A stretch of DNA of 64,000 nt from Patescibacteria group bacterium. Its GTDB lineage: Bacteria; Patescibacteriota; Minisyncoccia; Phycocordibacterales; CSBR16-119. Position numbers and translations under genes: made by a program. The notes beneath the pieces are model-generated. The model had not been told where the DNA came from. It saw only the letters and a list, made by a program, of their open reading frames with translations, and made no database searches. Below are positions 7,501 to 46,651 of the stretch, piece by piece (within the stretch, counting starts at the first letter, position 1; every line of letters begins with the position of its first letter). The stretch lies in NCBI GenBank assembly GCA_052033715.1, contig JBPOJJ010000002.1:94408-158407 (forward strand). Direction: 5' to 3'.

Positions 7501-10500
7501 CTAGCAACCCCAGATGAACTATCCCATGGCTCTTTTTGTGTGCCAGAACTTGCCGTTGCGCCAGCTTTCAACATTTCTGTTATTGACAGTTGAGCTCCCG
7601 TTCCTCCTGAAACTCCGTCTTGAGACAAAAAGCCACTGTTGCTTGTTGCATAATCAACGAGAGCACCTTTTAGGAAATTTAGAGTTGAAATATACGGCGG
7701 ACAAGCAAGAGCTGTATGGTAGCCCAAAACATCTGTTTTATTTTTCAAGAAACTTGGTTCGTATTGTGAACCACCTATATAACTTTGTGTTGAAGTACAA
7801 TTTCCTGGACTACCTCCGGCAGCATAATTCGATACCGTAGTGTGTTCCGTTGCTAAATTATTTTGATTGAACAATCCAGCGAGAGTTAGTATATTCGAAT
7901 GTCTTATCGGCGCTCTATTTGTATCGAATGTTGAAATTGAATAAATCTTACTTGTTGGATGTGTGTTATCAGCCTGTACACCCTGATCTACGAACTGTTT
8001 ACCTTCGTTATAGTTTCCTGAAGCAAAAGGCAACAAGAAAGCTGGGATGAGGTTATGAGTTTGTCGTGGAGTCAAAAATCCGGAAGAATTTTCAAAATAG
8101 GCATTTGTTGGCATGCTGCCAGAACTAAGCAACGCATCACCATCAACATATTGCCCTTTTGCAAATGCTACAACCAGAGAAACACATGGTTCTGTTCCAC
8201 TGCCGGTATTACAATTAGTGGTAGCGTTTCCAACCATGAAAGGATATCTCCACACAAGCATCGCGCCTTGAATGTCAGGAGAACCAAGACCGGCCGAAGT
8301 ATATGCAGAAGTTATCTGATTTAGAACATGAGCTCGCATGTTTGTTCCACCGAAACCTGTTTCGAAAGTGCTTCTTAGCATAATCCTGCCATTATTATCC
8401 ATCGGCGCGTTAAAACTAAGGGTTACTTTGTTTTGCGCAGGAATACCTCTTTGTTGTATATAGTAATCAGCTAGCTGACACGATTGGGAGTATTGTGAAT
8501 TGCACACAACGGCTATTTGATTTGGATTGAATGACCTTTGTGGAGTTGAAACTATTGGCGCCGAAGATGGAGGTGCGCTTGCAACGCTAAATGTAACACT
8601 TACGCTTGATGTCATCGGATTTCCAGCCGTATCTTGGCAGCGAACATATCTTGTATAAGATGTTCCGTCTGTCAAACCAAGGAGCGGATAGTTGTGAGAA
8701 GTCGATCCAGAGCCAGTAAAGGTGTTGGTCATGGAAGCGTAAGCAGTATCTGTTGTTGCCCACTTACAAGTTGCAGCTTCATTTGTCGTGGCTGTCATCG
8801 TAAATGTTGTTGTACCCGCGGAGAGAACCTGATTATTTGTCGGCGCGGTAATGTTAGCCGTTGGAGGAATTGTGTCAGTTGGTGGTGGAACGTATGAATC
8901 AATATTGTTTTCATTGACCCAACCATCAGTACCAGTTGCAAAGTCGACATACCAATAATTGATTCCGCCACTTATCCAAACTGGATTTATAGGTCCAGCC
9001 GAGCTGTTGGTTATCACGCCAACTGTACCAGCAACTTGATTTCCGGCATTACCAGAAGCGTCAGGTGTAACCTTGATGCTTGCTGTGGTATTTGTCTCAA
9101 CCTGGTTACCATTGGCAAAACTAGTTGAGAGTGTTGGAGCACTGACAGCATTTGAAACACCTGAAGTATTTCCAACGTTATCAACCGCGGTAATCGTATA
9201 GCTATAAGTTCCTGTTGATGTGACGCTGGTATCAACAAAAGTTGTTTGGTTTCCAACGTTTACTGTTGTGCCAGGATTTCTGGTGACATTGTAGTGATTA
9301 ACTCCTCCGGCATCTGTCGAAGCTGCCCAAGACAATCTAATCTCTCCTGCCGAACGATATGTTGAGGCTGCAGAAGTTGGATTGGTTGGAGGAGTTAGAT
9401 CGTCAAAGTTAGACAGGATGAATTGATTAACGACTGGTGTTCCAGCTGCGCCTGTACAAGTGGCGGCGGCATAAGGGGTGACGGTGAGGGTATATGCGCC
9501 CAAAATCTGAGTCGATGTTGGCCAAGAAGTATATGTCCCCGAAGCATCGCCATAAAGAGCAAATGGTGAAGAGCTTTCGCACTGAGTATAGGCGGTAAAT
9601 CCAGACGGCCCAGTTAGATCAAATTTGATACTTGCTGGAGCTGGTGTGCCTGGATTTGCTTTGATTGAGAAAGCTCCGCTAAGTGGTGCATATGTGGCGT
9701 TCGCCTGACTTCCAACGTTTAGCTGCTGACCAGAGGCGAGGGTGGACACAACTGTGCCGTTTATTTGAACAACCTGAAGAGAGGAAACGATTGTTGGTAT
9801 CGCTGTCGTTGTTGCTGTAACTGCAGATGATTGAGCAGAACAATTTTGCGTTGGCGCACTGTCGCAAGCAGAGATGGTGTATGAATAGAGTGTTCCAGCA
9901 ACCAAATCAAGATCCGTCATCGAAGTGCCTGAGATTGGAGAGCCAATGTAAGTACCATTTCGATAAATTCTATAAGTAACTGGAGAAGAAGCATCTGTCA
10001 CAGCATTCCAAGACAAAGCAACGGTTGTCGAAGTAACTGCGCCAACAGAAAGCGTTGGTACAGCTGGAGCGGTAGTATCGACTGGAGCGGCCACGCTAAA
10101 CTCACGACTTACACTTGTCGTCATTGTGTTTCCGACGGTGTCCTGGCAGCGTACGTATCGAGTGTATGATGTTCCGTTAACAAGACCCGTAAGCGACGCG
10201 TTGTGGCTAGTAGAACCAGCCCCAGCAAGTGTGTTGATCATGCTTGAGTAGGCAACGTCTGTTGTGTTCCATTTACATGTTGCCGCTTCGTTTGTTGTGA
10301 CCGACAAGGTTGTGCTTGTCGTACCAGCCGGCAGAACTTGACCCGCGGTTGGAGCAGTAATTGTGGCTGTTGGAGCAGTTGCATCCGACGGCGCTGCTGT
10401 CGTACCACTAACTGCGGATGATTGAGCAGAACAATTTGTGGTAATTGCTATATAGCAAGCCTGAACCTTGTAGTAATAAGTTACGTTTGGAGAAAGAGAC

Positions 10501-11858
10501 GAGTTTGTGTAGGTGAGGGCCGTTTGGAGAGTTGAGTTAAGTTGGGAGAAGGATCCGGTGGCTGAAGTTCCTCGGAAAATTTTATATCCGATTGTCTGCC
10601 CCGCCGCCCCCGTCGAAGCAGCCCAGCTAACGGTGATTGAATTTTGGGTTGAGGTTGTGGCGAGACCAGACGGAGTTGAAGGCGCGGCAACAGTTGCGGT
10701 TGAAGTCGTCCCAGAAACTTGAGAGGTGAGCGATGAAACGTTGCTTGCATCATCACGCGCGCGGAGTCTGTATTTGTAAGTTGTGCCGGGATTTAGGTTT
10801 TGGTGAGTAAAAGTGTGAGTTCCAGCAAGGACAGTTCCGACAGGTGTGGTTGTATTAACAGAAGTTGATCCTCCCGCGTTGGCATAAATTACATAATCAA
10901 AGACGTTAGCAGAAGACGAAGGAGACCAATTCAACGTAAGTGAGCTTGTTGTCGGAGAAACGACAGTAACACTTGTTGGCGCGGCAACGGCGAGCGTTGT
11001 TCCAGCAACCCTGGCGGAAAGCGCCGATTTATTGCCCGCAGCATCCACGGCCTTGATATTGTAGCGATAGGTTCTACTAGAAAGGAGCCCTGAATTTGTA
11101 TAAGTAGTTGCTGGGGCATTTACAATGGCAAATGGCGTCGTGGTATTAACACTGGTCGCACCACCATTATTTCGATAAATCTCGTACTTTACGACTCCTA
11201 CATTGTCGGTCGAAGCTGTCCATGAAACACGCAAAGAACTTGATGTGGCCAAACTAATATTTACACCAGTCGGGACCGAGGGCGCAACGATATCGGCAGC
11301 TGGGTATGTACAAGAGCCATTGTCGACGGTCGCATTCGGATTGTAGTTTGTGGCCGCAGGATCAGTACAGCCAGGAATAGGTGCTGGGGCAGACACAAAA
11401 TTCATCCCAACGGCCTGAGTTATAGAATTATAGTCTGTGTTTGTCGTCAGGTCACGGAAAAATACAACGCACTGGAGTTTAAAATTAGAACCAGGAGTTA
11501 TGCTTGGAAGAGTAACCGTTTTACTATGATTCCCGGCTGTGAGATATTCATTACTTGTAGCTCCGTATTGGTATATTTCAAAAGTACCCACCTGAGCACC
11601 ATTATTCTGAAACCAAGACCATTGCATTCTTCTTACGACAATGTTAGGGCCCGTGGTGCCGACCGTACAAGTCATGTTCCTGGTTTCTCCAGGATAAAGA
11701 GTTGTATTCTGAGCAGGGTCAGTTAGGCTTATTGACCCAACAGCGTTACTAACGCTGGCAACTTGGGCTTTTTGGTTGTCTCCACCAGAGAGCAGAGATC
11801 CGAGCGACACAACGAACGCAAGCGCGATGACTAGAAAGAAAGCCTTTTGTAATTTCAT
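4593..11858 (-). CDS. Giant (2421 aa) secreted surface protein: signal peptide, multiple FN3/Ig-like repeats, central unknown ~450 aa domain, C-terminal right-handed parallel beta-helix region
   Basis: N-terminal signal peptide (MKLQKAFFLVIALAFVVSLGSLLSG). Many repeats of the SW.AS.D..GV..Y.IYR FN3 signature. NxIxN/beta-helix-like repeats near the C-terminus (NNIIYDFNRSGIAF...). Two diverged copies of a ~95 aa module (..TTNEAATCKW.TTD.AY.SM.NT..G.GSTSHN..L.GL..GTSYTRYVRCQDT.GN.M..SVS..FSV). Confidence 0.85.
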   Translation of the reverse strand: MKLQKAFFLVIALAFVVSLGSLLSGGDNQKAQVASVSNAVGSISLTDPAQNTTLYPGETRNMTCTVGTTGPNIVVRRMQWSWFQNNGAQVGTFEIYQYGATSNEYLTAGNHSKTVTLPSITPGSNFKLQCVVFFRDLTTNTDYNSITQAVGMNFVSAPAPIPGCTDPAATNYNPNATVDNGSCTYPAADIVAPSVPTGVNISLATSSSLRVSWTASTDNVGVVKYEIYRNNGGATSVNTTTPFAIVNAPATTYTNSGLLSSRTYRYNIKAVDAAGNKSALSARVAGTTLAVAAPTSVTVVSPTTSSLTLNWSPSSSANVFDYVIYANAGGSTSVNTTTPVGTVLAGTHTFTHQNLNPGTTYKYRLRARDDASNVSSLTSQVSGTTSTATVAAPSTPSGLATTSTQNSITVSWAASTGAAGQTIGYKIFRGTSATGSFSQLNSTLQTALTYTNSSLSPNVTYYYKVQACYIAITTNCSAQSSAVSGTTAAPSDATAPTATITAPTAGQVLPAGTTSTTLSVTTNEAATCKWNTTDVAYSSMINTLAGAGSTSHNASLTGLVNGTSYTRYVRCQDTVGNTMTTSVSREFSVAAPVDTTAPAVPTLSVGAVTSTTVALSWNAVTDASSPVTYRIYRNGTYIGSPISGTSMTDLDLVAGTLYSYTISACDSAPTQNCSAQSSAVTATTTAIPTIVSSLQVVQINGTVVSTLASGQQLNVGSQANATYAPLSGAFSIKANPGTPAPASIKFDLTGPSGFTAYTQCESSSPFALYGDASGTYTSWPTSTQILGAYTLTVTPYAAATCTGAAGTPVVNQFILSNFDDLTPPTNPTSAASTYRSAGEIRLSWAASTDAGGVNHYNVTRNPGTTVNVGNQTTFVDTSVTSTGTYSYTITAVDNVGNTSGVSNAVSAPTLSTSFANGNQVETNTTASIKVTPDASGNAGNQVAGTVGVITNSSAGPINPVWISGGINYWYVDFATGTDGWVNENNIDSYVPPPTDTIPPTANITAPTNNQVLSAGTTTFTMTATTNEAATCKWATTDTAYASMTNTFTGSGSTSHNYPLLGLTDGTSYTRYVRCQDTAGNPMTSSVSVTFSVASAPPSSAPIVSTPQRSFNPNQIAVVCNSQYSQSCQLADYYIQQRGIPAQNKVTLSFNAPMDNNGRIMLRSTFETGFGGTNMRAHVLNQITSAYTSAGLGSPDIQGAMLVWRYPFMVGNATTNCNTGSGTEPCVSLVVAFAKGQYVDGDALLSSGSMPTNAYFENSSGFLTPRQTHNLIPAFLLPFASGNYNEGKQFVDQGVQADNTHPTSKIYSISTFDTNRAPIRHSNILTLAGLFNQNNLATEHTTVSNYAAGGSPGNCTSTQSYIGGSQYEPSFLKNKTDVLGYHTALACPPYISTLNFLKGALVDYATSNSGFLSQDGVSGGTGAQLSITEMLKAGATASSGTQKEPWDSSSGVARKSSKTTQLWREYYTGASALQSYWSSVEKNGNTNFVGEPLANPWKDPQITFSNNILAINITHIKPGETWKLQSSTNGTSWTDVSGQTSITAPNGKLGIKTITLSNATAPYYRLVNTNNSSLPQIQRAVNGSGGGTPLIDNENPVWTAGTPNLATASPTTTSLTVSWNTATDATTPITYKLQRRTLPSGTFAEVYSGGATSFSNTGLVAGTSYEYQVRACDGVTAPNCTSWSSATTGTTSSDPTPPPPTGGQTMNGINGAVGPSLTTNPTSCTNPSGGTIFYVDAVSGNDSNNGTSVSTPWKTISKVNSSMSSINAGTMICFKREQSHRGRLAITKSGTASSKIIVDAYGAGSAPVISGNVLVTNWTQHSGNIWKATVSSAPASTPKYLFINSAYQTQARQPNTGWYFTNSRGANLITDSDNSWLSAQGSNSLTNGEVVTRGSPWSISIGKITGNSGSRIDLQRYDHTTPGTAMKYGSQWTNLAWGYILRNKLSLLDTAGEWYFDSATNTVYLWAPGNANPNTLTVEMTSESDGVYIASAGHIIVRNLIVEGQTGYAVWLRSQSGTNLKGITVENLEIRNAYHGVYHSGIDGVAESDKNTLRNNYLHDLNVTGISVQGGNGHLIEGNVIERVSTVEDRMYSSEMTHSGIIHIGGGSNIVSRRNIVRDTGYAGIWAAGSGTITENLVERAMKTLTDGAGITFDNTNGLTISKNIVKDIGVGSGQNAGTGGSPNMASQPILYVGYVARDKAYYFGDGTVGPIINLDLDSNIAINATDGIWVDHNTLFRDNKIRNNIIYDFNRSGIAFADWSNYRTVSGGCPTPDSNSPCFWPQYNDVVTGNKIYGIASYQNPLYFLHSYSNGTGAVADFGTINSNYYSNPYRTTKVQQMKNFSGQTNNWTLGQWKTSSNEDVNSTDGTYTATQAPQIFYNATISPTSQVITNACRVNGQSTSGTQTYTIQPFTAIVVEYGNC

Positions 11859-11958
11859 ACAATAATGGTGATTATAAAATTTTAATGAACTAATTATAAA
11901 ACAAAGCCCAACAATAAGATATTGTCAAATCAATAAAGTGTTTAAAACTTATGTGTTA

Positions 11959-13722
11959 TTAAATCTTATTTAGTTTAGAAAACTTTTCGAAAATGTCTTC
12001 GAGCGAAACGTCGGAGAACTCTTCGCCTCCCTCGTCCGCGACTCGGCCTTCCAATTTAAATTTATTTGATTCGATTTCTTTGTCGCCGATAACCATAATG
12101 AATGGAACTTTTTGATTTTTTGCTTCACGGACACTTTTGCCAAGTCCGGCGGTCATAAGTTCGGCGCGAACGCCATTTTCAGTCATTTTTTCGTAAATTC
12201 CCTTCGCAAATTCCCCGTGGGTGTCTTCTTTGATTGGAACGATAGCAATTTGAACGGGCGCGAGCCAGAATGGAAAATTACCAGCAAAGTGTTCAATCAT
12301 AATGGCCAGGAAGCGCTCAAGAGAGCCGGCGATCGCGCGATGAATCATGACAGGAGTCTGTTTGGTGCCGTCTTTGGCTGTATATTCGAGTCCAAACCGT
12401 TCTGGCTGGACAAAATCTATCTGGGCGGTTGCAAGCTGGCGCTCACGGCCAAGCGCATCTTTGAACTGAAAGTCTAATTTTGGGCCATAAAATGCCGCTT
12501 CGCCGGGCATGCGCTTGGCATCAAGACCGAACTCGTCGGAAATTTCCTGCAGAAAATTCTCAGCCTTGGCCCAATTCTCATCAGTTCCGAGGTATTTCTC
12601 TGGAGTCTTTGGGTCGCGGACGGACAAGGATACCCAGAAAGTTTCGCCTTTTTTGTACATACCAAGCGCGCTGTAAAATTCCTCGATGGTTTTGACAATA
12701 TTTCTAACTTCGTCCTTGATCTGATCTGGCGTACAGAAAATATGCGCATCATCGACGGAGATCGAACGCACGCGGGAAAGCCCGAGCAATTGTCCCGGCT
12801 TCTCGTCGCGATACATCATCGTCAGTTCATTGAGGCGGATCGGCAAATCACGATAGCTGTGAGGCACGGCGGCGTAAATCTGAGTGTGGTGTGGACAATT
12901 CATCGGTTTGAAGACAAATTCATCTCCGCTTTGCGCGCCACGAACATAGAAAAATTCATCTTTGAATTTGGCGGCGTGGCCCGAAGTCTCGTAGAGGGCA
13001 AGTTTGGCGATATGCGGAATGGTAACTTTCTCGTATCCGTATTTTCGAGATATATTCCAAAGGCGATCAGTCAAAGCTTCACGCAATTTGTGTCCACGCG
13101 GAGTCCACAGAGGCAATCCCGCGCCGACGAGCTCGGAAAAAGTGAAGAGATTCAGCTCTTTACCAATTTTCCGGTGATCCCGTTCTTTGGCTTCTTCCAC
13201 GAGTTTCAAATGGGAATCGAGTTCAGACTTGTTTTCAAATGCCAGGCCGTAGACTCGGGTCAACATCTTGTTATTCTCGTCTCCGCGCCAATAAGCACCG
13301 GCGAGTTTGTCGAGTTTGAAGGATTCAGTGTCAATTTCTTGGGCTGGATTGTCTAAGTGCCCCCCTCGACACAGATCGGTAAAGCCTCCACAGGTATATA
13401 GAGTGATTTTCTCCCCTTTTTCGGCAATTTCCTCAATGAGCTCAAGTTTGTAAGGATTCCCAGCGAAAACACTCTTGGCTTCATCTACCGAAACCTCTCG
13501 ATGAGTGAATTCTGTCCAGCTCGGGAGGAGCTTTCGCATGACTTTCTCGATCTTCGGCAGATCGGCATCGGTCAAAGGCTTGGAAAATTCCATATCATAG
13601 TAAAAGCCGGTATCAATGGCAGGGCCTAAGGTTAATTTCGTATCTGGGTATTGCTCAAGAACGGCCGCCGCCAAAAGGTGGGCCAAAGTATGTCTTTTTT
13701 TCGAAATATCGTTTGTTTCCAT
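11959..13722 (-). CDS. thrS: Threonyl-tRNA synthetase lacking the N-terminal TGS domain
   Basis: Class II aaRS core plus editing-domain motifs (HRKIGKELNLF, FKPMNCPHH, anticodon-binding C-terminus). 587 aa, starting directly in the N2 editing domain. Confidence 0.9.
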   Translation of the reverse strand: METNDISKKRHTLAHLLAAAVLEQYPDTKLTLGPAIDTGFYYDMEFSKPLTDADLPKIEKVMRKLLPSWTEFTHREVSVDEAKSVFAGNPYKLELIEEIAEKGEKITLYTCGGFTDLCRGGHLDNPAQEIDTESFKLDKLAGAYWRGDENNKMLTRVYGLAFENKSELDSHLKLVEEAKERDHRKIGKELNLFTFSELVGAGLPLWTPRGHKLREALTDRLWNISRKYGYEKVTIPHIAKLALYETSGHAAKFKDEFFYVRGAQSGDEFVFKPMNCPHHTQIYAAVPHSYRDLPIRLNELTMMYRDEKPGQLLGLSRVRSISVDDAHIFCTPDQIKDEVRNIVKTIEEFYSALGMYKKGETFWVSLSVRDPKTPEKYLGTDENWAKAENFLQEISDEFGLDAKRMPGEAAFYGPKLDFQFKDALGRERQLATAQIDFVQPERFGLEYTAKDGTKQTPVMIHRAIAGSLERFLAIMIEHFAGNFPFWLAPVQIAIVPIKEDTHGEFAKGIYEKMTENGVRAELMTAGLGKSVREAKNQKVPFIMVIGDKEIESNKFKLEGRVADEGGEEFSDVSLEDIFEKFSKLNKI

Positions 13723-13794
13723 AGGGTTCTATCGTAGCACAAAGGTGGATTTCCAAAAAGATTACAGTTCCTGGTTCAATCTTTGCAACAACGA

Positions 13795-14487
13795 CTACTT
13801 AGTCTTGGAAACTTCCTCGGGCACAGCCAGTGGCTCAATTATCTTTTCCAGTGCAGCGGTGCTTTTTTTGAACAAATTAAAAATGATAGCGATGGTCAAA
13901 ACCGAAAGTGCAAAATTGGTATTGATATAAGCAAGCGGTATGGCGACAAGAGAAAAAATTATCGGAATATTTATACGCATGTGAGCATGGCGACGCTCGG
14001 ATTCTTTCATTTTTCTATTTTTCAATTCTTTGGAACGATGAGCATATTCTCGCATACCAAAAAGTAAAAGGCCGATGACAAAAATATTCACCGCAAAAAC
14101 AACCACTGTGACCGGCGAACGCGAGTAAAGTCCCAAAAGGTGGGACGAAAACGGCACCAAGGCAACGAAAAATAAAAATGTTGCTGAAAGGTTCAGGAAA
14201 TTATGATTGTGAGTTTTTACAAAATCAGTTGCAACAGCGTGGTATCCTCGCCAGTATGTAAACAGTGTGGCAAACGATAATACATATGACAAGAATAACG
14301 GCATGGCATCTTTGAGCACTCGGACAATCGCTTCGTCGGAAACGAATCCGAGATCCGGAACCTTGATCTCAAGCACCAAGAGCGTCATGACAATGGCGAA
14401 AATCCCGTCGGCTAAAACTGAAAGTCTAGATGAGTCTTGCATACGAATATTGTAATACATTTGCGAGTGACTTTCACCTCTCACCAA
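13795..14487 (-). CDS. DUF1211/TMEM175-family putative K+ channel membrane protein
   Basis: Signature RLSVLADGIFAIVMTLLVLEIKVP near the N-terminus and multiple TM helices. Confidence 0.7.
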   Translation of the reverse strand: MVRGESHSQMYYNIRMQDSSRLSVLADGIFAIVMTLLVLEIKVPDLGFVSDEAIVRVLKDAMPLFLSYVLSFATLFTYWRGYHAVATDFVKTHNHNFLNLSATFLFFVALVPFSSHLLGLYSRSPVTVVVFAVNIFVIGLLLFGMREYAHRSKELKNRKMKESERRHAHMRINIPIIFSLVAIPLAYINTNFALSVLTIAIIFNLFKKSTAALEKIIEPLAVPEEVSKTK

Positions 14488-14522
14488 ATCAAAAAACCGA
14501 CTCGTGCCGGCTTTTTGATTTC

Positions 14523-16145
14523 TTATTGCATCGAGTTTATATACGCCCTAGTTTTCTCTCCGAAAAACCCCGTTCCTTTTACGAGACCATAGGGCATCAA
14601 GATCTCGGTCTTGTAAGCTTCCTGGAATTTTACGAGCGCGGCAAAAGTGAGCGGTCCGAAGAATTCTGTTTCGGAGCCTGGCGCGCCAGAACCAGTTGCC
14701 GCAAGTTTAAATCCGGCACTGTTTAGAAACATCTGGAGTTTTTTGACTTCTAGACTTTTTTGTCCGAGGGCGAGATTCATTTCAAATTTACTAGACGAAT
14801 TTACCGTCGGGGCTTGAGTTGGGGCTGGGGCTTTGGGGGCGGTTTGTGATTCTGGTTTTTGAACTACTTGGTTAGTCTGATTGGTAATCGGGTAAGACCC
14901 AGAAGACTGCACCTGACTTGATTCACTTCCAAACAATCCAAATATTGAAAACGATGATGTCTCGCATGTAACAGTCATCGCGCCAGTATTGGTCGAACAA
15001 TTATTAAGTGCCTCCCATCCGATACCATCAGTATAGTGATAAATAGTGAGACTATTAGGATCAAGTCCTACAATGTCTTCTTCGGTATAATCGATAGTAA
15101 TCTCGACCGGCGCGTCAAATTCTTCGTCCAGCTCTGTTTTTTCATCTTCGAACGCTTTCAATGAATATGCTTGCCCAACCCAACTTTTCCCTGACGGAGT
15201 AGAAATCTCACTTTGAACTAAACTTTTCTGCAACTTCAAGGCCTCAACCCCAACCTCAGATAGACCACTCTTAAGATTGGCTGGCACAACAGCCTCAAGT
15301 CCCTTACCCCTAACCTTTGCTGAAATTGTTGTCCCAGCAAGGGCAGTTGATACCGAAGCTTGGTATGTAACGATTTCTGAATCGCCCTTGCATCCAGTAG
15401 TTTTAAAATCTCCGCCCTGACTTTCTGCCAAGTTTGAACTGTCGTCATAAGAAATAACCTTAAACCAGTATCCTGCACAAGAAGTTAAATCTTGGATCTC
15501 TATAGAGTGGTCTGTTGTTTTTGCTGCACCAGCGGTAACCTCTCCTTTAAAATCATCTGTTGGTCCATACTCAACAACCGATGTGCCCTTAACGGTTGTA
15601 GCCCAATCAATAATTGCTGTTGTGGCTGTTGTGGTTACTATAGGTTCCCCAAATAAAGCTATCGGATCATCCGGACCACCGCCACCGGTTGGAGTTGCCG
15701 TGACAGATAAAGACCTCTCACTTTCTGATAAATCAGACAAAGTGGTGATCTCAAAAGTGTACTCAGTATTATTTGTTAGACCAGTAACAGTATATGAAGT
15801 CTCAATACTACCAGTATCAACGGAGCTCTCTCCTTCTTTGCTTGCTGAATAATAGACTCGATAACCTGTTATGACTTCAAGTTGTAATCCTGGTTCCTGC
15901 CAAGCAAGAGACACTTCCCCGTCTCCAGCGGTTGCCGTTGGTTTCGATGGAGAATCTAAACCAAGCGCAATCTCTGGATATATAACAAACCCCCAGAGAG
16001 ACGCGAGTCCGGCGACAATTATCATAACCAAAACATGCTTATGAACTGTTTTTAATGAGTTAATTTTTTGCATATAAAGTAACAAAAATTTTATTAGACC
16101 ACTAATAAACAGATCATAGCACCTTTTCGATTGCGTCAAGGCCAC
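14523..16145 (-). CDS. Secreted protein with FN3 domains and C-terminal peptidoglycan-binding (PG_binding_1-like) domain
   Basis: N-terminal TM/signal, FN3-like segments, and a C-terminal LGQKSLEVKKLQMFLNSAGF...GPLTFAALVKFQEAY motif typical of putative peptidoglycan-binding domains. True start may be an internal Met (MQKINS... or MIIVAGL...). Confidence 0.7.
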   Translation of the reverse strand: MALTQSKRCYDLFISGLIKFLLLYMQKINSLKTVHKHVLVMIIVAGLASLWGFVIYPEIALGLDSPSKPTATAGDGEVSLAWQEPGLQLEVITGYRVYYSASKEGESSVDTGSIETSYTVTGLTNNTEYTFEITTLSDLSESERSLSVTATPTGGGGPDDPIALFGEPIVTTTATTAIIDWATTVKGTSVVEYGPTDDFKGEVTAGAAKTTDHSIEIQDLTSCAGYWFKVISYDDSSNLAESQGGDFKTTGCKGDSEIVTYQASVSTALAGTTISAKVRGKGLEAVVPANLKSGLSEVGVEALKLQKSLVQSEISTPSGKSWVGQAYSLKAFEDEKTELDEEFDAPVEITIDYTEEDIVGLDPNSLTIYHYTDGIGWEALNNCSTNTGAMTVTCETSSFSIFGLFGSESSQVQSSGSYPITNQTNQVVQKPESQTAPKAPAPTQAPTVNSSSKFEMNLALGQKSLEVKKLQMFLNSAGFKLAATGSGAPGSETEFFGPLTFAALVKFQEAYKTEILMPYGLVKGTGFFGEKTRAYINSMQ

Positions 16146-18125: not shown

Positions 18126-18446
18126 TTACATATTGGCGGCTTCTTCGGCCAAAACCATCTCGCAGTACTTCGCCACGATCTGATTCTTGGCGACTGGACC
18201 CGTTGCCGCTTCGTGCGCCTTGAAAAGTTCATCTGGCGTCTCGAACTTCCCGAGCTGCAAAAGTTCGATGAGCTCCTGGTCCTTTGGACATGGAATGTTC
18301 CATGCTGCGGCGATCTGTCCGACGCTGAACGGGCCGTTTTTGGCTAATTCCGTCGCTCCATCCCAGTTAGAAATGCTCTTCGCTGGCGGCTTGGTTATGG
18401 TACTCATGATGGCGTGGTGTTTTAATGCTATATTACACAAGCCCAC
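18126..18446 (-). CDS. Hypothetical protein, GC-rich (~50%) relative to flanks
   Basis: 106 aa ORF with rho-independent terminator-like hairpin downstream (18093-18133). No recognisable family. Confidence 0.4.
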   Translation of the reverse strand: MGLCNIALKHHAIMSTITKPPAKSISNWDGATELAKNGPFSVGQIAAAWNIPCPKDQELIELLQLGKFETPDELFKAHEAATGPVAKNQIVAKYCEMVLAEEAANM

Positions 18447-24228: not shown

Positions 24229-24496
24229 GGAAATATTTTAACATATCCAATGGGGACTCTGTCACGCATAAATTTCCTGACGGAAATTTTGCTTAAGCCC
24301 GTTTTTTAATTTGTGGTCACAAATAAGGACTCGCTCACGAGTTACTAATTCGCTACGCTTATAAGTACTCGCGAGCCCGCCTCGCAGTCGCTGGGGCGAC
24401 ACGGCTGCGACTTTCTCGTCCTGACAGAGGCCAAGCAGTTGGCCTCTTTCCCGGGCACAAAATAAAAAGACTGGCCAAAGCCAGCTTTCTATTTTG

Positions 24497-24578
24497 TGCC
24501 CGGGACAGGACTCGAACCTGCATGCCTTTCGGCGCTACCACCTCAAGGTAGTAAGTCTACCAGTTTCTCCACCCGGGC
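24497..24578 (-). tRNA. tRNA-Leu(GAG): tRNA-Leu (anticodon GAG), long variable arm
   Basis: Reverse complement GCCCGGGTGGAGAAACTGGTAGACTTACTACCTTGAGGTGGTAGCGCCGAAAGGCATGCAGGTTCGAGTCCTGTCCCGGGCA. Anticodon loop TTGAGGT. Confidence 0.75.
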
Positions 24579-24803
24579 ATAAACGCTATTCTAATAGATT
24601 TTTTATAAATTCTCTACCCTCGCCAGATTTTAGCCACTTTTCTTTTTTTCTGGCTTCCAAACGTATGCAAAATATTCCATAGCTTTTGTCTACCAACCTG
24701 CCGGCAGGCAGGTTTCTCCCCCCGGGCTTATGGAAAGATATTATCAGTTTTTTGAAAAAGTGAAAGGTCGCACAGAGATGCGACCTTTCAAAAGAAAACG
24801 AAC

Positions 24804-25160
24804 TCAGCCGACGACGAGCCTCTTCAGGTCCAGAGCAGAATTTCCACACAAGTGTTCAGCTGCCCTGACGATCAGGTAGAAGGAAACCCTGAATTCGCCA
24901 CCCGGATTTGGGGTGCGCTCAAGGCAGAGGAAGCATGTCACTGTCTGATCGTCATCGACACCGAACCTTCGAAAGGTCTCTTCCCGCAACGTCGTCTTGC
25001 GCAGTAAAAGATGGTAGTCGACAGAACTGTTCTTCAGATCCCTGAGGAAGGACTTTCCTTCCGAACCCTCAAACAAGGGTACTCCTTGGCTTGGTGGCAT
25101 GGGTATCAATGCCCTCTCTGGCGTTTTGTTCATCGCGTGCATGGTTTGCTTGTTCGTCAT
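24804..25160 (-). CDS. Hypothetical protein, GC-rich (~52%)
   Basis: AAGGAG Shine-Dalgarno 9 nt upstream of ATG. Rho-independent terminator hairpin at 24757-24785 followed by a T-run on the minus strand. No family recognised. Confidence 0.5.
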   Translation of the reverse strand: MTNKQTMHAMNKTPERALIPMPPSQGVPLFEGSEGKSFLRDLKNSSVDYHLLLRKTTLREETFRRFGVDDDQTVTCFLCLERTPNPGGEFRVSFYLIVRAAEHLCGNSALDLKRLVVG

Positions 25161-25223
25161 CTTTTATACTCCTTTTGAAAAATAAATCAATAAAAATTTC
25201 GAGTTTTTGAGTATAATAGCCGT

Positions 25224-25994
25224 ATGAAAATCATTTCTTGGAACGTAAACGGCATACGCGCGAATTTCAAAAAAGGTGCGTTCGCCGAGATTTTTAAATT
25301 AAATCCGAATATTCTGTGCCTCCAAGAAACCAAGGCCGAACCATCACAGCTCACAGAAGAAATCTTGAAGCCCAAAGGTTACACGTCATATTTCTCAAGT
25401 TCGAAAATCAAAAAAGGCTACAGCGGTGTGGCAATTTATACGAAAGAAATTCCAGAAAAAGTTACGTATGGAATTGATATGCCCGGTGACGATGATGAGG
25501 GCCGTACCGTCACGGCGCATTACACCGACTTTATTCTCATAAACTGCTACTTCCCCAACGGCGGCGGCGCACCGGAACGTCTGGAATACAAACTAGAATT
25601 CTACGACGCATTTTTGAAATACGTAAATAAATTAAGGAAGGCCGGGAAGCGCATAATTTTTACTGGTGATGTGAATGTTGCGCACACTGAAATAGATATT
25701 GCGAGACCAAAAGAAAATGAAACGCATGTCGGATTCCTCCCCGAAGAACGTGCTTGGGTAGACGAAGTTATCGCTGATGGTTACGTCGACGTGTTTAGGA
25801 ATGTCAATCCGATGAAGAAAGATGTTTACACATACTGGGATCAGAAGAGCGCCGCACGTGAACGCAACGTCGGTTGGCGTATCGACTACTTCTTTGCTTC
25901 ATCTTCAATAATAAAAAATATTAAATCTTTCAAAACTCATGCCGACATCTTCGGCTCGGATCATTGTCCGATCTCCATCGAACTTAATATATAA
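25224..25994 (+). CDS. xth: Exodeoxyribonuclease III (AP endonuclease)
   Basis: MKIISWNVNGIRA..., LCLQETK and GDVNVAHTEID motifs. TATAAT 7 nt upstream of ATG suggests leaderless mRNA. Confidence 0.9.
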   Translation: MKIISWNVNGIRANFKKGAFAEIFKLNPNILCLQETKAEPSQLTEEILKPKGYTSYFSSSKIKKGYSGVAIYTKEIPEKVTYGIDMPGDDDEGRTVTAHYTDFILINCYFPNGGGAPERLEYKLEFYDAFLKYVNKLRKAGKRIIFTGDVNVAHTEIDIARPKENETHVGFLPEERAWVDEVIADGYVDVFRNVNPMKKDVYTYWDQKSAARERNVGWRIDYFFASSSIIKNIKSFKTHADIFGSDHCPISIELNI

Positions 25995-26044
25995 AGTGCA
26001 AACAGCCCTCGTTCACGAGGGCTGTTTGCCAAGAGTGGTCTTGG

Positions 26045-26851
26045 CTACTGCACATAATACCGCACACCTACGCGCCATCCGTCAGTGACCTTGTAGCCGA
26101 TACGAGCCAATTCGTCGCGCTCTGCTTCTTCGGGCATGACGACAAGTCCTTCGAGCACAACATGCGGAACCGGCTTAAAAGAAATACCGGCGCCGTACCC
26201 AGTGAACATCTCCTGAGTCAGCACGACCTCAAGACTTCGCAAGGGCAAGACTTTTTTGGCCGGAACAAGTAGGTGCCCGAGTCGGCCAGTGGCCCTGATG
26301 AACGAATGCATGTCGTTCAGTTCGAAAGTATTCGAGATCAGGAATGTCCAATGCTTCTGAGACGTCTGCATGTACGCGCCCCACAAAGGATACGTATCGA
26401 ACATTTTACTTCGACGAGTAATGAAATTCCCGTCCGAAGCAACATGGCGATAGTATTTGCCACTAGACACTCCGAAGCTCCATCGAAGTGGACGACATGT
26501 TACTCCGAGACTGATCCGCGACGAAATGTAGTGCGACGGATAGCCGTCTAGACCCACCAAAACGTAGGGCTCGAAAAGATGATCTCTCTTGGCGGGAAAG
26601 TAGAATTGAATTTCCATTTGTCCGCCATACAAACGAGATCTCGATTCCACGTCGCCCAACCGCTTGGTCTGGTTGTCGGTCATGGATTCGGTTCGCGGAA
26701 TCATGCAATCGAATCGAAGTAACACGATAACGTCGTTAGTCGTGTCCGCGCGGTTTGGGATAAAATCCGAAACCAGGTTCATCGCTAGTTGGGCCGAGGC
26801 AGTAAGCCAAGAGATTCCAACAGCAAAAATCAAGCAACACATCGTCTTCAT
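26045..26851 (-). CDS. Secreted hypothetical protein, GC-rich (~53%), C-terminal amphipathic beta-strand pattern (beta-barrel-like)
   Basis: Signal peptide MKTMCCLIFAVGISWLTASAQ. Alternating hydrophobic pattern ending ...GWRVGVRYYVQ. Composition strongly atypical versus flanks. Confidence 0.5.
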   Translation of the reverse strand: MKTMCCLIFAVGISWLTASAQLAMNLVSDFIPNRADTTNDVIVLLRFDCMIPRTESMTDNQTKRLGDVESRSRLYGGQMEIQFYFPAKRDHLFEPYVLVGLDGYPSHYISSRISLGVTCRPLRWSFGVSSGKYYRHVASDGNFITRRSKMFDTYPLWGAYMQTSQKHWTFLISNTFELNDMHSFIRATGRLGHLLVPAKKVLPLRSLEVVLTQEMFTGYGAGISFKPVPHVVLEGLVVMPEEAERDELARIGYKVTDGWRVGVRYYVQ

Positions 26852-26935
26852 GGCTTGGGGGTTTATGTGTGGTGGAAAGGACTGTTTCTGTCATTTACAT
26901 TTTACTATATAAAAATAAGCGCTTATAATTAGACC

Positions 26936-27373
26936 ATGCACGATCACGAGAAGAAAAAGTTAGACGAACAACATCCTCTAAACAAAAAGACGGGCAAAGA
27001 ACTCTACAACTTTGTAAAAAGTATGAAGAGTATTGGTCACGCTTGGCGCGGAATAATTGTATTCCTAAAAACGACAAACAATTTACGTTTCCATATTATG
27101 GTCGGCGTCATTGTTGTCTATTTTGGTTTTTATTTTCACATCACCACGACTGAGTGGCTTTTCCTGGTCCTCGCTATCACCATGGTCATCGCAGCCGAAT
27201 GTTTCAACACCGCTATCGAATTTGACATTGATCTGACCTCCCCCGAATATCACCCTTATGCCAAATACACCAAAGACGTCGCCGCCGGCGCTGTGCTTCT
27301 GACCTCTATCGGAGCTGTTGTTGTGGGACTCATCATTTTTATCCCCAAATTCATCCTTTTCTTCTGCTCTTGA
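26936..27373 (+). CDS. dgkA: Diacylglycerol/undecaprenol kinase (DgkA family)
   Basis: Three TM helices and AAECFNTAIE motif. 145 aa. Confidence 0.8.
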   Translation: MHDHEKKKLDEQHPLNKKTGKELYNFVKSMKSIGHAWRGIIVFLKTTNNLRFHIMVGVIVVYFGFYFHITTTEWLFLVLAITMVIAAECFNTAIEFDIDLTSPEYHPYAKYTKDVAAGAVLLTSIGAVVVGLIIFIPKFILFFCS

Positions 27374-27722
27374 CTTTTTTACCTGTGCATGTTATTGTTC
27401 AACTAAGCAGAACATCTCATGTGGATCATCAAGGAACTGATCGATGGGTTTGCCCGACTGACACCGTCAGACGGAATTACCCTTAGCGTAGCAACGGGCT
27501 TACTGGCCACCCTACTGACCTGGGGTATCAATAAGCTCGAGAGCCTGGCAAAGGCTCGTGCATGAAGATCGTTGAACTACGTGGACACAGCGTTTGAAGA
27601 GAAGGCACCGGCACACAGTCATGGTGGAATGGGTGGCGGCATGGACAAGACGCAAGTCGCGTCCAGCGCATCTCTTTGATCGAAGGGCCTCGCACGAGCG
27701 GGGTCCTTTGTCTTTTTAATAA

Positions 27723-29222
27723 TTATTTAACGTTATAATCTTTTCTGATTTTTTTGACTTCGAGGTCTTCTGCTTCGTCTTTAGCATTCTTCCCTGCTTC
27801 ACCAAGCTTGCGCAAATGTTCATCAGAAAGTTTTAGAAGTTCTGTGGCTTTATTTTCTAAATATTCTGCCGTATTTAATTTTGGATCTTCGAGAACTTCT
27901 TCGAGAAGTGCATGAAGTGTCCAACCAATATGTGGACCGGGTCTTCCCTGCCTGCCGGCAGGCAGGTCCGCCATTTCCATAATTCTATTTCCGTCAATTT
28001 TGAGCATGCCGACGTTTATCGGATCACGCATAACTTCTTCGATCATCGATTCAAATTTGCGAAGTCTGTATGGCTCTTCTTTGGGCCTGCCCATTCCGAC
28101 ACGATCACAAATTCGCAGGTCTATAAGATCCCAAACATTGTCTGCACCGACTTTGGCCACAAGTCTCCTGACCGCCGATAGAGTTATCTGATCCGTGTCA
28201 GAGAAGAACATGTGGTATCGCACAAGTCGAGTAATTTTGTCAGTCAATTCGTTGCCAAATTTCAATCGCTCGCAAATCTTCTTTGTGATTTTTGCTCCGA
28301 CAACATCGTGTCCGTAAAACGTATAATCTTCTTTTTCTTTGGACCATTCTCTGGTCGCAGGTTTCCCAATGTCATGAAAAAGCCCAGCCAGGCGAATGTG
28401 TACTGGCCATTCTTTGTCCGCGGCGTGTTGCATTGTACGGAGATTGTGTTCCCAAACATCGTAAATGTGTTCACCGTTTTGTTCGACGCCGATTCCAATC
28501 TCGAGCTCCGGTGAGATGTATTTCATGATTCCCAATTTCTGCGCCAAAGTAATTCCAATTATTGGTTCGGCCGACATTATCATTTTCAAAAACTCGTCGC
28601 GAATGCGTTCGGCTGAAATATTCGCCAGAAGTTCAACGTTTCTATTCATCGCCATCATCGTATCGTGCTCGATGACAAATCCGTGTTGGGTCGAGAAACG
28701 CACAGCACGAAGAATGCGTAAGGCGTCTTCTTGGAACCGCTCATCGGCGATACCCACAGCTTTGATCATTTTATCTTTGATGGCTTCGAGCCCGTCGTAG
28801 AGATCTACCAGTTCCCCATTCGACGGTCGGTAAGCGATGGCGTTCATGGTAAAGTCGCGACGTTTCAAATCGTCTTCTAGATTTTTGGAAAATTTTACCT
28901 CGTCTGGATGACGATTGTCTGAGTAAGTTGATTCGAGTCGATATGGCGTGACCTCAATAACTTTTAGATTTTCATTTTCGGTAATTTTGTTCTCGACACC
29001 GACGGTGCCAAATTTATTTTCATAAAAAGTGTCCGGGAAAATCTCCTGGATTTGCTCCGGCGTTGCATTGGTCGTCACATCCCAGTCTTTCGGCGTCTTC
29101 CCTGTCAACAAATCGCGAACACACCCGCCGACGATGTAGGCCTCAAAACCAGCCGACTCCAGACCATCAGTCACAATCTTAACTTCCGATGGAATATCGA
29201 AATCTTGTTTCATAAGTAACAT
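27723..29222 (-). CDS. cca: CCA-adding enzyme / tRNA nucleotidyltransferase with HD domain
   Basis: Pol-beta-like head (GGCVRDLLTGKTPKDWDVTT) plus HD motif (LAGLFHDIGKP). C-terminal region carries an in-frame GC-rich palindrome insertion (ADLPAGRQGRPG). Confidence 0.85.
   Translation of the reverse strand: MLLMKQDFDIPSEVKIVTDGLESAGFEAYIVGGCVRDLLTGKTPKDWDVTTNATPEQIQEIFPDTFYENKFGTVGVENKITENENLKVIEVTPYRLESTYSDNRHPDEVKFSKNLEDDLKRRDFTMNAIAYRPSNGELVDLYDGLEAIKDKMIKAVGIADERFQEDALRILRAVRFSTQHGFVIEHDTMMAMNRNVELLANISAERIRDEFLKMIMSAEPIIGITLAQKLGIMKYISPELEIGIGVEQNGEHIYDVWEHNLRTMQHAADKEWPVHIRLAGLFHDIGKPATREWSKEKEDYTFYGHDVVGAKITKKICERLKFGNELTDKITRLVRYHMFFSDTDQITLSAVRRLVAKVGADNVWDLIDLRICDRVGMGRPKEEPYRLRKFESMIEEVMRDPINVGMLKIDGNRIMEMADLPAGRQGRPGPHIGWTLHALLEEVLEDPKLNTAEYLENKATELLKLSDEHLRKLGEAGKNAKDEAEDLEVKKIRKDYNVK
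27947..27966. repeat. GC-rich perfect palindrome CCTGCCTGCCGGCAGGCAGG (in-frame inside cca). Related copies at 24697-24712 (16 nt) and 30264-30285 (22 nt)
   Basis: Three occurrences seen directly. Sharply GC-rich in an AT-rich background. Confidence 0.85.
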
Positions 29223-44113: not shown

Positions 44114-44506
44114 TTGTGTTATGTTAAGGGCCAACCTGACAAGCACATGAAAAACATCGTATTGGTCGTCCCGCACCCGTTGATATCGGCAACCTTCCAG
44201 GATGTTCTTGGGCTCAAGGATCATTGCTTTTTACGGGCAACGACCGCTCAAGAGTTCCGTACGATCGTGGAGCTCTTGGACCCGGCACTGCCTGACTTGG
44301 TCGCTATGACAAGCGATGCATCGGATCCCGTGATCAAGGCCGTTGTTGATGGGTGGCCAGCCTTGCACGAGCGCATGGTGATCATGGCTATGGATCCTGC
44401 GGTCGCTTTTGACATGGTGCCATTGGTGTCTGTTCCCGTTCTTCCTAGGAGCAATGATCGATACAGCGACTTCTTCAAGAAGTGTCGTGAGATCCTTGGC
44501 GAGTAG
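44114..44506 (+). CDS. Hypothetical protein, GC-rich (~52%), possibly degenerate receiver-like fold; start may be internal Met (44147)
   Basis: Strong terminator at 44524-44558 (GCCGAAGCCCCCATCTCGGGGGCTTCGC + T-run). Interrupts the usual ruvC-yebC adjacency on the opposite strand. Confidence 0.45.
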   Translation: MCYVKGQPDKHMKNIVLVVPHPLISATFQDVLGLKDHCFLRATTAQEFRTIVELLDPALPDLVAMTSDASDPVIKAVVDGWPALHERMVIMAMDPAVAFDMVPLVSVPVLPRSNDRYSDFFKKCREILGE

Positions 44507-46447: not shown

Positions 46448-46651
46448 ATGAAACCGTTTAAAGCCATCTCTCGGGTGCTTCTGATACTTACGGCCGCGAC
46501 CTTCCTTCATAGTCTGGTCCGGCCGGAACACCTAAGCTTCCTGTCCTGGTTGCGCTGGGTGTTCTTGGGCCTCACTATCGTTTTTGCGGTCGTGAACTTC
46601 TTGCTCTCTTTGGTCAACAATCCTCAAGAAGATGGACCCCCAGGAGCATGA
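46448..46651 (+). CDS. Small membrane protein (two TM), GC-rich (~52%)
   Basis: 67 aa hydrophobic ORF followed by terminator GAAAGCCTCGGCACTCCCGAGGCTTTC (46658-46700). Confidence 0.35.
   Translation: MKPFKAISRVLLILTAATFLHSLVRPEHLSFLSWLRWVFLGLTIVFAVVNFLLSLVNNPQEDGPPGA

Follow-up and report, generated by a model that had tools for sequence, protein, structure and literature searches.

A predicted β-barrel protein family and two further small genes in probable variable slots of a Patescibacteria core-gene run

Within a 64-kb stretch of contig JBPOJJ010000002.1 from a Patescibacteria group bacterium (the window, to which all positions without a locus name refer), an intact tRNA-Leu gene adjoins three patches of DNA that are richer in GC than their background and that alternate with core genes (Table 1). 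These core genes are xth, of the exodeoxyribonuclease III family, dgkA, of the prokaryotic diacylglycerol/undecaprenol kinase family, and the gene for a CCA-adding enzyme (CCA), which bounds the region, and the patches hold three small genes named here orf118, orf268 and orf48. An initial annotation of the same DNA had listed the tRNA gene, the 118-aa and 268-aa open reading frames (ORFs) and a background-like xth and dgkA, and all of these stand, with xth and dgkA confirmed by Pfam and, at 42.7% and 43.2% GC, close to the window mean of 43.7%. The subject of this text is the organization of this region and, above all, orf268, which encodes an exported protein predicted to fold as a 12-stranded β-barrel.

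The host belongs to the Candidate Phyla Radiation (CPR), or Patescibacteria, as the initial annotation had suspected. In a search of 185,579 species genomes the closest relatives of xth were mostly labelled Paceibacterota, Nomurabacteria, Parcubacteria or "Candidatus Saccharibacteria", with Nitrospirota and Spirochaetota labels on two distant matches, and xth was found in all 81 of the Patescibacteria loci fetched. The gene content of the window is typical of CPR genomes and includes a type IV pilus ATPase, a class A penicillin-binding protein, DsbA, DsbB, VKOR and a membrane-anchored FKBP. Fetched contigs and loci of relatives or of gene family members are designated below by L and a number. 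Synonymous sites are saturated among these genomes (synonymous divergence, dS, about 1.3-1.7), so gene arrangements shared by the syntenic genomes are old and inherited.

Table 1. Features of the region, further small ORFs of the window, and related features in other loci
Feature	Position	Strand	Basis
tRNA-Leu, anticodon GAG, intact	24496-24578	-	ARAGORN; Rfam tRNA, 45.8 bits
149-nt insertion between AT-rich element and tRNA-Leu	24579-24727	-	direct repeat; gapless relatives
AT-rich element, ctttttcaaaaaactgataatatctttccataa	24728-24760	-	conservation in relatives
Intrinsic terminator of orf118, 13-bp stem and T run	24761-24790	-	terminator scan, inverted repeat
orf118, small conserved protein	24804-25160	-	homologs, synteny, dN/dS
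Promoter-like element (28-nt leader), TTGATT-N16-TATAAA, TTGATTTATTTTTCAAAAGGAGTATAAA	25163-25190	-	conservation/consensus only
xth (exodeoxyribonuclease III family), core gene	25224-25994	+	Pfam Exo_endo_phos, E 8e-29
Hairpin with 14-bp stem between convergent xth and orf268	25998-26029		terminator scan
orf268, exported protein, predicted 12-stranded β-barrel	26045-26851	-	family alignment, AlphaFold, Foldseek
Promoter-like site TTTACT-17-TATAAT, 5′ of dgkA in the divergent orf268/dgkA spacer	26901-26929	+	consensus match only, 10/12
dgkA (prokaryotic diacylglycerol/undecaprenol kinase family)	26936-27373	+	Pfam DAGK_prokar, E 5.5e-35
Promoter-like site TTGACT-17-TATTGT with TG extension, 5′ of orf48	27370-27398	+	consensus match only
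orf48, small single-pass membrane protein, 48 aa, MWIIKELIDGFARLTPSDGITLSVATGLLATLLTWGINKLESLAKARA	27419-27565	+	translation, homolog
Conserved 3′ region after orf48	27566-27680	+	alignment with L089; blastn 74% over 72 nt
Intrinsic terminator, 13-bp stem and T run, closing the dgkA-orf48 unit by convergent CCA	27681-27710	+	terminator scan
CCA-adding enzyme (PolyA_pol head and HD domain), region-bounding core gene	27723-29222	-	Pfam
Small ORF with the same GC-rich codon bias	18126-18446	-	
Small ORF with the same GC-rich codon bias	44114-44506	+	
Small ORF with the same GC-rich codon bias	46448-46651	+	
Small ORF with the same GC-rich codon bias	49198-49500	-	
β-rich ORFans with MKK...(A/S)Q signal peptides	L019 8681-9052, L020 11389-11991, L022 9861-10427, L001 6520-7215, L002 3796-4470, L088 701-1765		
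Copies of the 28-nt leader	L001 7943-7970, L086 6301-6328, L089 12314-12341, L096 5447-5474, L097 1460-1487		

The product of orf268 has few relatives. The gene is real and under purifying selection, but its rate of evolution is about six times that of the neighbouring genes. A word-indexed search returned only the protein itself and one 58%-identical protein (P0002, from L001). Compared with the L001 gene, nonsynonymous divergence (dN) is 0.30 and dS is 1.49 (dN/dS about 0.2), and differences at codon positions 1, 2 and 3 amount to 0.30, 0.20 and 0.53; for xth and CCA, dS against L001 is the same and dN about 0.05. Searched exhaustively with a profile, 1.84 billion protein representatives yielded 27 clusters, referred to here as family F3, with lengths of 245-272 aa in 24 of the 27. 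A word-indexed search with the family profile returned only five proteins, while a profile search of genome contigs with the orf268 alignment and a search of metagenome contigs with a 7-member F3 alignment gave no match. Sequence relatives of orf268 were likewise absent from Pfam (24 members queried, nothing beyond noise), NCBIfam, PHROGs and PADLOC, and a search of PDB sequences for F3 gave no match at E <= 10. By the terminator scan, the hairpin between orf268 and the convergent xth terminates orf268, and it probably acts in both directions.

All 24 aligned F3 members begin with an MK(K) n-region and a hydrophobic core, followed by a small-x-small site and then glutamine at position +1, a sequence pattern by which they appear to carry a cleavable Sec-type signal peptide. 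In orf268 this peptide is MKTMCCLIFAVGISWLTASA, with predicted cleavage before the invariant Gln21. With Met24 as its start, the deposited protein of 245 aa, which is identical to the ORF over 91% of its length, lacks the conserved signal peptide (window positions 26782-26851); the deposited start codon is probably a mis-annotation, and this 245-aa version needs correction.

Signal peptides of the same kind also occur outside the family. In other Paceibacteria loci, β-rich ORFans with MKK...(A/S)Q signal peptides lie near xth (Table 1), and some of them have C-termini resembling those of outer-membrane proteins, such as GLGFVF (L019 8681-9052) and SVSCAF. These ORFans suggest that the lineage has a larger repertoire of exported, outer-membrane-like proteins and possibly a habit of placing glutamine at +1. 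Two ORFs with signal peptides, of 231 aa in L001 and 354 aa in L088, were compared with the barrel family as candidate paralogs, and the comparison was negative.

The fold of orf268 became accessible through the family alignment. With two sequences AlphaFold gave an unusable model (predicted local distance difference test score, pLDDT, of 27), whereas the 24-member alignment gave a usable one with a pLDDT of 82, a predicted template modelling score (pTM) of 0.78, and 12 β-strands of 8-15 residues. Foldseek returned 26 matches in the PDB at E <= 0.001, every one a porin or other outer-membrane barrel fold, among them OmpM1, porins (including engineered porin-scaffold proteins), OmpG, OMPLA, FadL and autotransporter β-domains, and the BFVD library of viral structures also yielded outer-membrane barrels only. 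The best template modelling (TM) scores were those to 12-stranded barrels, with 0.47/0.52 for the intimin β-domain (E 1.3e-3, just beyond the cut-off) and 0.40/0.42 for OMPLA. By dyad periodicity all 12 strands are amphipathic, with one strongly hydrophobic face and one polar or charged face, and the conserved charged residues of F3 lie on the polar face. Gly258, at the start of the last strand, is invariant, and this strand shows a Gly-x-hydrophobic pattern. A distant F3 subgroup ends in ...RWF, ...RFF or ...DWY, and the subgroup of the window ends in YVN or YVQ, with an aromatic residue at position -3. On this modelling, the mature protein is predicted to be a 12-stranded amphipathic β-barrel of outer-membrane type; the signal peptide and barrel-like pattern noticed in the initial annotation thus agree with the alignment, with AlphaFold and with Foldseek, as predictions.

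Homologs of orf268 are syntenic in eight related CPR loci, a set built from the five closest cluster representatives and the L096 member, which came from the locus of an orf118 homolog. The full order dgkA-F3-xth is found in the window, L001, L086, L089/L090, L091 and L096, the pair dgkA-F3 is kept in L093/L094, and a partial F3 gene lies beside xth in L097. L089 is collinear with the window over more than 20 kb, from YidC, R3H, RNase Y, HU, UPF0102 and CCA through dgkA, the barrel gene and xth to VKOR, MauE and DUF305. More distant Paceibacteria have the order methyltransferase-xth-CCA-UPF0102, without dgkA or the barrel gene. In L004 xth and dgkA are adjacent and the space between them is empty, and in L002 it is taken up by a different 8.8-kb block (7033-15852) bounded by two TrmB-family regulators; neither locus yielded a barrel gene when all fetched loci were searched with a profile. 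The L002 block also includes a GC-rich (57%) Ro60/TROVE+vWA gene.

Three remote F3 members lie outside this neighbourhood. The member in L087 is beside a fatty-acid desaturase gene, that in L082 is a few kb from BacA and LPG-synthase genes, and that in L088 is beside another exported ORFan. Homologs of the neighbour gene in L087 occur in CPR loci; L082 and L088 appear CPR-like, judged by gene content. Counting dgkA, F3 genes thus occur near lipid-related genes in three contexts (dgkA; the desaturase, L087 963-1913; and BacA with LPG-synthase, L082 2616-5153), a weak lead towards a lipid-related role.

Within the syntenic set the barrel gene varies far more than the core genes, and in a different pattern. 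Pairwise amino-acid identities among eight close relatives are 89-96% for xth, 90-94% for CCA (81-85% for the partial copy in L091), 60-92% for dgkA and 36-79% for the barrel. The window and L089 are 89% identical in dgkA and 36% in the barrel, L001 and L093 are 92% identical in dgkA and 41% in the barrel, and the window and L001 are 60% and 58% identical, respectively; the barrels of L089 and L097 are 79% identical, a pair that has no dgkA value. As uniform vertical divergence cannot yield such conflicting nearest neighbours for dgkA and the barrel, deeply diverged alleles appear to have been exchanged, and the identity matrices, from which alone the incongruence was read, indicate exchange breakpoints between xth, the barrel gene, dgkA and CCA. 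Within the barrel, the connection between strands β5 and β6 (VASDGNFVTRRS) is the most conserved part, with 75% mean pairwise identity, and conservation is lowest, at 27-34%, in the first three strands. It was also observed that dgkA, nominally a housekeeping gene, is unusually divergent between genomes that share about 90-95% identity in xth and CCA.

Variation of another kind is seen at orf118. Homologs support a start at the ATG at 25133, giving a protein of 109 aa that begins MNKTPERALIPMPPSQG..., and they fall into clusters with 77% (P0031) and 41% (P0032) identity. They occupy equivalent positions, as a 98-aa ORF between xth and VKOR in L097 and as a 108-aa ORF between a methyltransferase gene and tRNA-Leu-VKOR in L096. 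Against L097, dN is 0.14 and dS is 1.11 (dN/dS 0.13), and the motifs MPPSQG, YHLLLR, LER and AEHLC are invariant in the alignment. No signal peptide was found in the family, and searches of Pfam, NCBIfam, PHROG, PADLOC and PDB sequences gave no match; on these sequence features orf118 appears to encode a small conserved protein of cytoplasmic type.

The DNA around orf118 is better conserved than the choice of ORF. The 28-nt promoter-like leader 5′ of the gene is unique in the window and has one copy each in L001, L086, L089/90, L095/96 and L097, about 90% conserved despite saturated synonymous sites. It always stands directly 5′ of the slot ORF, whether the gene upstream is xth, a methyltransferase or another slot ORF, and a hairpin at the position of the orf118 terminator is also present in relatives. 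The ORF behind the leader belongs to the orf118 family in three loci and is unrelated in L086 (131 aa), L001 (140 aa) and L089 (118 aa). Because leader and terminator are kept around unrelated ORFs, the slot resembles a replaceable cassette in its behaviour. Distant homology of the L086, L001 and L089 ORFs to orf118 was considered and rejected, with hhalign probabilities below 1%, as was a role of the leader as a cassette signal repeated elsewhere in the window, there being a single copy per locus. Two further candidates at this end of the region were also discarded: an 87-codon ORF, orf87 (24586-24849), has no homologs, spans the terminator and the tRNA-fragment insertion, and is spurious, and the notion that 24586-25160 is a single frameshifted gene (orf87 plus orf118) akin to the 231-aa ORF of L001 found no similarity. 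In L089, the closest long relative, the slot ORF and VKOR are separated by a LAGLIDADG-like ORF of low GC content (36%; 12825-13505) that the window does not have.

The initial annotation described the DNA between dgkA and CCA (27374-27722) as poor in ORFs, which overlooked the conserved orf48, at 48 aa below the size threshold then used. The orf48 product has one hydrophobic helix. L089/L090 carry an orf48 homolog on the downstream side of dgkA (phmmer E 5.5e-5, tblastn E 3.5e-6), with 0.32, 0.22 and 0.54 differences at codon positions 1, 2 and 3, and L001 has a 45-aa ORF at the same position; no match was found in Pfam, NCBIfam, PHROG, PADLOC or PDB sequences. Downstream of orf48, a 35-nt block (GCACCGGCACACAGTCATGGTGGAATGGGTGGCGG, 27605-27640) has a nearly identical counterpart in L089, although synonymous sites have diverged to saturation, and the terminator that closes the unit is 88% identical to L089 over 34 nt. 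Relative to shuffles, RNA folding of the about 155 nt after orf48 gives z -2.5 for the plus and -1.6 for the minus strand (two sequences only), and there is no Rfam match above noise; the region could be an element of the 3′ untranslated region or a small RNA, and the 35-nt block an RNA or protein-binding element. In relatives the space between dgkA and CCA also holds an NYN-domain gene (L001, L002) or unrelated ORFs (L086, L004, L089), and these additional genes are GC-rich. Decay of an NYN gene like those of L001 and L002 was considered as the origin of 27374-27722 and rejected, as tblastn and blastn found no similarity.

At the other end of the region, the tRNA-Leu gene is conserved in L096 and L097. 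The AT-rich element next to it is about 90% identical to L096, L086 and L097 over 56-63 nt, with neighbour genes that are synonymously saturated, and in these three loci it abuts tRNA-Leu directly; we infer that it is probably the tRNA promoter. The 149-nt insertion that separates the two is found only in this genome and is absent from those three loci. Within it, about 110 nt of AT-rich DNA come after a degenerate copy of the first ~24 nt of tRNA-Leu; a 16-nt palindrome, CTGCCTGCCGGCAGGT, interrupts the duplicated tRNA 5′ end at the position of the D-loop, and a 19-nt direct repeat (24563-24581 and 24712-24730) is 89% identical at a spacing of 149. This scar, which contains no ORF, is the only signature of tRNA-linked insertion, and it may have been left by a small mobile element or an aborted integration.

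The GC content of the patches, given as about 50-53% in the initial annotation, bears this out for 26045-26900 (50.5%, z 1.9, top 3% of same-size windows) and is higher for 27400-27700 (54.8%, z 2.3, top 1.7%), but 24586-25160 reaches only 47.7% (z 0.99 against same-size windows), the orf118 ORF alone (24804-25160) having 52.7%. Summary GC values for the three patches are 52.7%, 50.8% and 51.6%. The patches lie 7-10 points above background and are real but unexceptional, since about 23 segments of the window reach at least 50% GC in 300-nt windows. A compositional mosaic had also been described; what remains of it is a mild GC excess, as tetranucleotide distances of the patches from the window mean are ordinary (z 0.7-1.5) and GC at fourfold-degenerate sites is like that of neighbours (0.54 in orf268 and xth, 0.55 in dgkA and 0.51 in CCA). 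The idea that the excess reflects foreign composition at neutral sites is not supported, given that equality.

The excess is nonetheless a consistent property of the barrel gene, in which GC at third codon positions (GC3) is 0.56-0.65 across all relatives against about 0.43-0.58 in flanking genes. Measured with the codon table of the core genes, about 40% of the excess in orf268 can be traced to amino-acid composition, with Lys, Ile and Asn less frequent and Arg and Pro more so, and about 60% to GC-richer codon choice, a residual of +0.047 (z +2.2) that lies mostly in twofold codons. For the patches the codon-choice residuals are z +2.2 to +3.1, and residuals of z +2.2 to +3.2 are common to orf118, orf48, four small ORFs elsewhere in the window (Table 1) and a TnpB-like gene. 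Accessory genes are not uniformly GC-rich, as AT-rich ones occur in L089. The GC excess marks a flexible, fast-evolving, recombining class of genes, not recent foreign insertion, and candidate sources of it are exchange with a GC-richer pool or gene conversion that is biased in the recombining slots.

These observations are best accounted for, at a probability of roughly 60%, if the region is a run of core genes with variable slots for small, lineage-restricted, fast-evolving genes and not one island. The core genes would be VKOR, tRNA-Leu, xth, dgkA and the CCA-adding enzyme, with the spacers serving as slots and each slot gene having its own promoter-like site and terminator (Table 1). The slot between xth and dgkA would hold orf268, of a previously undescribed family. 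Because the alleles of close relatives are so divergent and are incongruent with the adjacent dgkA, its product is suggested to be exposed at the cell surface, in an envelope layer of the cell's own or in the membrane of a partner cell, and under diversifying pressure, with homologous recombination in the conserved flanks as the means by which its alleles would be exchanged. The slot 5′ of tRNA-Leu would hold orf118 between a conserved leader and terminator, its ORF being exchanged like a cassette, and the slot between dgkA and CCA would here hold only orf48, the conserved 3′ element and a terminator, with more genes in relatives.

Several points weigh against this explanation. The barrel is a prediction from 24 sequences whose TM scores to solved barrels are modest (0.3-0.5), and orf268 itself ends in YYVQ, where an aromatic residue would be canonical. 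An outer membrane is lacking in the CPR bacteria studied to date (PMC8871954; bioRxiv 10.64898/2026.03.03.709456), which makes such a barrel an odd find. Variation affects strands and loops alike, without hypervariable loops; spread over the barrel in this way, and with a dN/dS of 0.2, it does not demonstrate diversifying selection, on loops or elsewhere, and weak constraint could partly explain the high divergence. The syntenic loci are not independent, since all come from one shallow clade. The GC-rich codon usage is not accounted for by fourfold sites, at which GC is the same as in the immediate neighbours, and the promoters are putative, assigned by consensus or conservation only.

Among other explanations, it seems unlikely, if worth keeping in mind, that orf268 is an exported soluble or wall-associated all-β protein, for example a binding or carrier protein, with a divergence due to weak constraint. 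Such a protein would suit cells of the kind just cited, dyad hydrophobic periodicity is also found in soluble β proteins, and neither the modest TM scores nor a variation that is not loop-focused would be surprising. The twelve long strands of the model speak for a barrel, however, as do the conserved charges on the polar face with strongly hydrophobic residues opposite, the restriction of all significant structural neighbours in the PDB and BFVD to outer-membrane barrel folds, and the classic ...RWF or ...RFF ending of the distant subgroup; the lumen of a 12-stranded barrel would also be too wide for a hydrophobic core. Somewhat less likely still is that the barrel gene, along with the similar MKK...AQ secreted ORFs, was acquired from a diderm donor such as a member of the Bacteroidota, with the GC excess as a leftover. 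Glutamine at +1 in 24 of 24 members matches the Q-rule, which has been reported as specific to Bacteroidetes (PMC5837995, PMC10653852). Outer-membrane barrels and the Q-rule are the norm in Bacteroidota, the fold is of outer-membrane type, codon usage is GC-richer than in core genes, and the neighbour of one family member (L088) has a weak match to the C-terminal domain of the type IX secretion system. Yet an exhaustive search brought up just 27 clusters, the eight syntenic loci are CPR and the contexts examined hold no firm Bacteroidota markers, none of the outer-membrane families in Pfam is linked to F3 by sequence, and Q-type signal peptides on other ORFans in distant Paceibacteria suggest a native trait. 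Fourfold-site GC equals that of the neighbours, and donor composition should in any case have decayed, because the gene has been retained vertically past synonymous saturation.

The interpretation offered in the initial annotation, that the patches are remnants of one old, eroded islet integrated beside tRNA-Leu, is improbable. It draws on the adjacent tRNA gene, the GC-richer patches, the insertion with its 19-nt duplicate of the tRNA 5′ end, which shows that insertion at the tRNA has happened in the past, and the varying genes in the slots of relatives. It fails because relatives with saturated dS have homologs of orf268, orf118 and orf48 in the same places, a finding named beforehand as one that would count against it, because no integrase or recombinase was found (among listed ORFs of at least 50 aa in 22-30 kb, with the region's ORFs scanned against Pfam), and because no repeat brackets the 3 kb. 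Moreover, xth and dgkA lie between the patches, which form separate transcription units with terminators of their own, neither fourfold-site GC nor tetranucleotide usage is foreign, and the duplicated piece is the 5′ end of the tRNA, spans 149 nt and encloses no ORF. Least credible of all is that the patches are structured non-coding RNA or other non-coding DNA with accidental ORFs. Where a genome leans towards AT, GC-rich patches often turn out to be RNA genes, 27566-27722 outdoes its shuffles in folding (z -2.5) and contains the block that is near-identical in L089, and orf87 is indeed spurious. Rfam, however, identified only tRNAs, in the whole window at gathering thresholds and, apart from noise, in 24.2-28.0 kb at permissive E-values, and the patches are therefore not known RNA genes. 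For orf268 and orf118 the non-coding reading is refuted by substitutions biased to third codon positions with dN/dS of 0.13-0.2, by protein families of conserved length and, for orf268, by a confident AlphaFold model.

Among known systems, the only structural neighbours found for F3 are outer-membrane barrels: the 12-stranded barrels of diderm bacteria (intimin/invasin, autotransporter β-domains, OMPLA and the COG4313 channel) and porins. Like these, F3 proteins combine an N-terminal Sec signal peptide with an all-β mature part of about 245 residues, 12 predicted antiparallel amphipathic strands and a Gly-x-hydrophobic last strand, and some of the members have an aromatic residue at their end. 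Unlike them, they lack detectable similarity to any Pfam or PDB family, have no recognisable passenger, plug or catalytic triad, and are encoded in CPR genomes; the YYVQ end of orf268 and the TM scores of only 0.3-0.5 also set it apart. To our knowledge, neither an outer membrane nor a β-barrel assembly (BAM) machinery is known from CPR genomes, and no domains of outer-membrane biogenesis were found among about 35 window proteins scanned against Pfam. The signal peptides resemble Q-rule substrates of signal peptidase I in Bacteroidetes (PMC5837995) in having a small-x-small site followed by glutamine in every F3 member and MKK-type n-regions. They differ in that the host is a CPR bacterium and that no such rule is obvious among the other exported proteins of the window; glutaminyl cyclase was absent from the same ~35 window proteins, no genome-wide search having been made.

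As a locus, the region resembles replacement-type flexible islands and surface-antigen loci, of which O-antigen, capsule and porB/ompA-type allele exchange are examples. Shared features are divergent alleles or unrelated genes at one site between conserved core genes, incongruent similarity patterns that imply recombination through conserved flanks, and exported or membrane proteins as slot products. It departs from them in having single genes of 0.15-0.8 kb per slot instead of multi-gene clusters, several independent slots interleaved with core genes, and one slot that keeps its promoter and terminator around unrelated ORFs. With tRNA-associated islands it has in common the adjoining tRNA gene, some compositional deviation and a short tRNA duplicate nearby; unlike them, it has no integrase, its duplicate of the 5′ end brackets only 149 nt, and its ORFs lie outside that duplicate, are syntenic in relatives and are interleaved with core genes. 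The heuristic that a GC-rich patch beside a tRNA gene is an island fails here.

The arrangement with variable slots would make the locus a miniature of the flexible gene fraction in a streamlined CPR genome, in which alleles and whole ORFs are swapped at single-gene slots. A more far-reaching possibility, which we rate as a long shot, is that a clade of Paceibacteria thought to lack an outer membrane and lipid synthesis keeps a hypervariable, exported 12-stranded barrel of outer-membrane type, encoded divergently from the lipid kinase gene dgkA, that acts in an unrecognised outer layer of CPR cells or in the membrane of the host. If so, the barrel would serve as a device for attachment, as a channel or for lipid uptake, and its alleles would be shuffled under pressure from hosts or phages. 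This touches on how CPR bacteria build their envelope and tap their hosts, and F3 offers a concrete candidate for tests of membrane insertion, channel activity, localisation and N-terminal pyroglutamate.

Several features elsewhere in the window may also be of interest. The four further GC-rich small ORFs that share the codon bias of the slot genes (67-130 aa, GC3 0.60-0.64) lie between housekeeping genes and have no significant family match, with one weak PHROG match for the 67-aa ORF; these candidate genes may mark additional variable slots. The TnpB-like gene, a 472-aa ORF at 59997-61415 (+) with a GC content of 51.5%, weakly matches the OrfB_IS605 transposase family and has the codon bias of the slot genes. 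At 4593-11858 (-) lies the gene of a giant exported protein of 2,421 aa, probably a surface adhesin or an enzyme, in which four fn3 repeats are combined with a right-handed β-helix.

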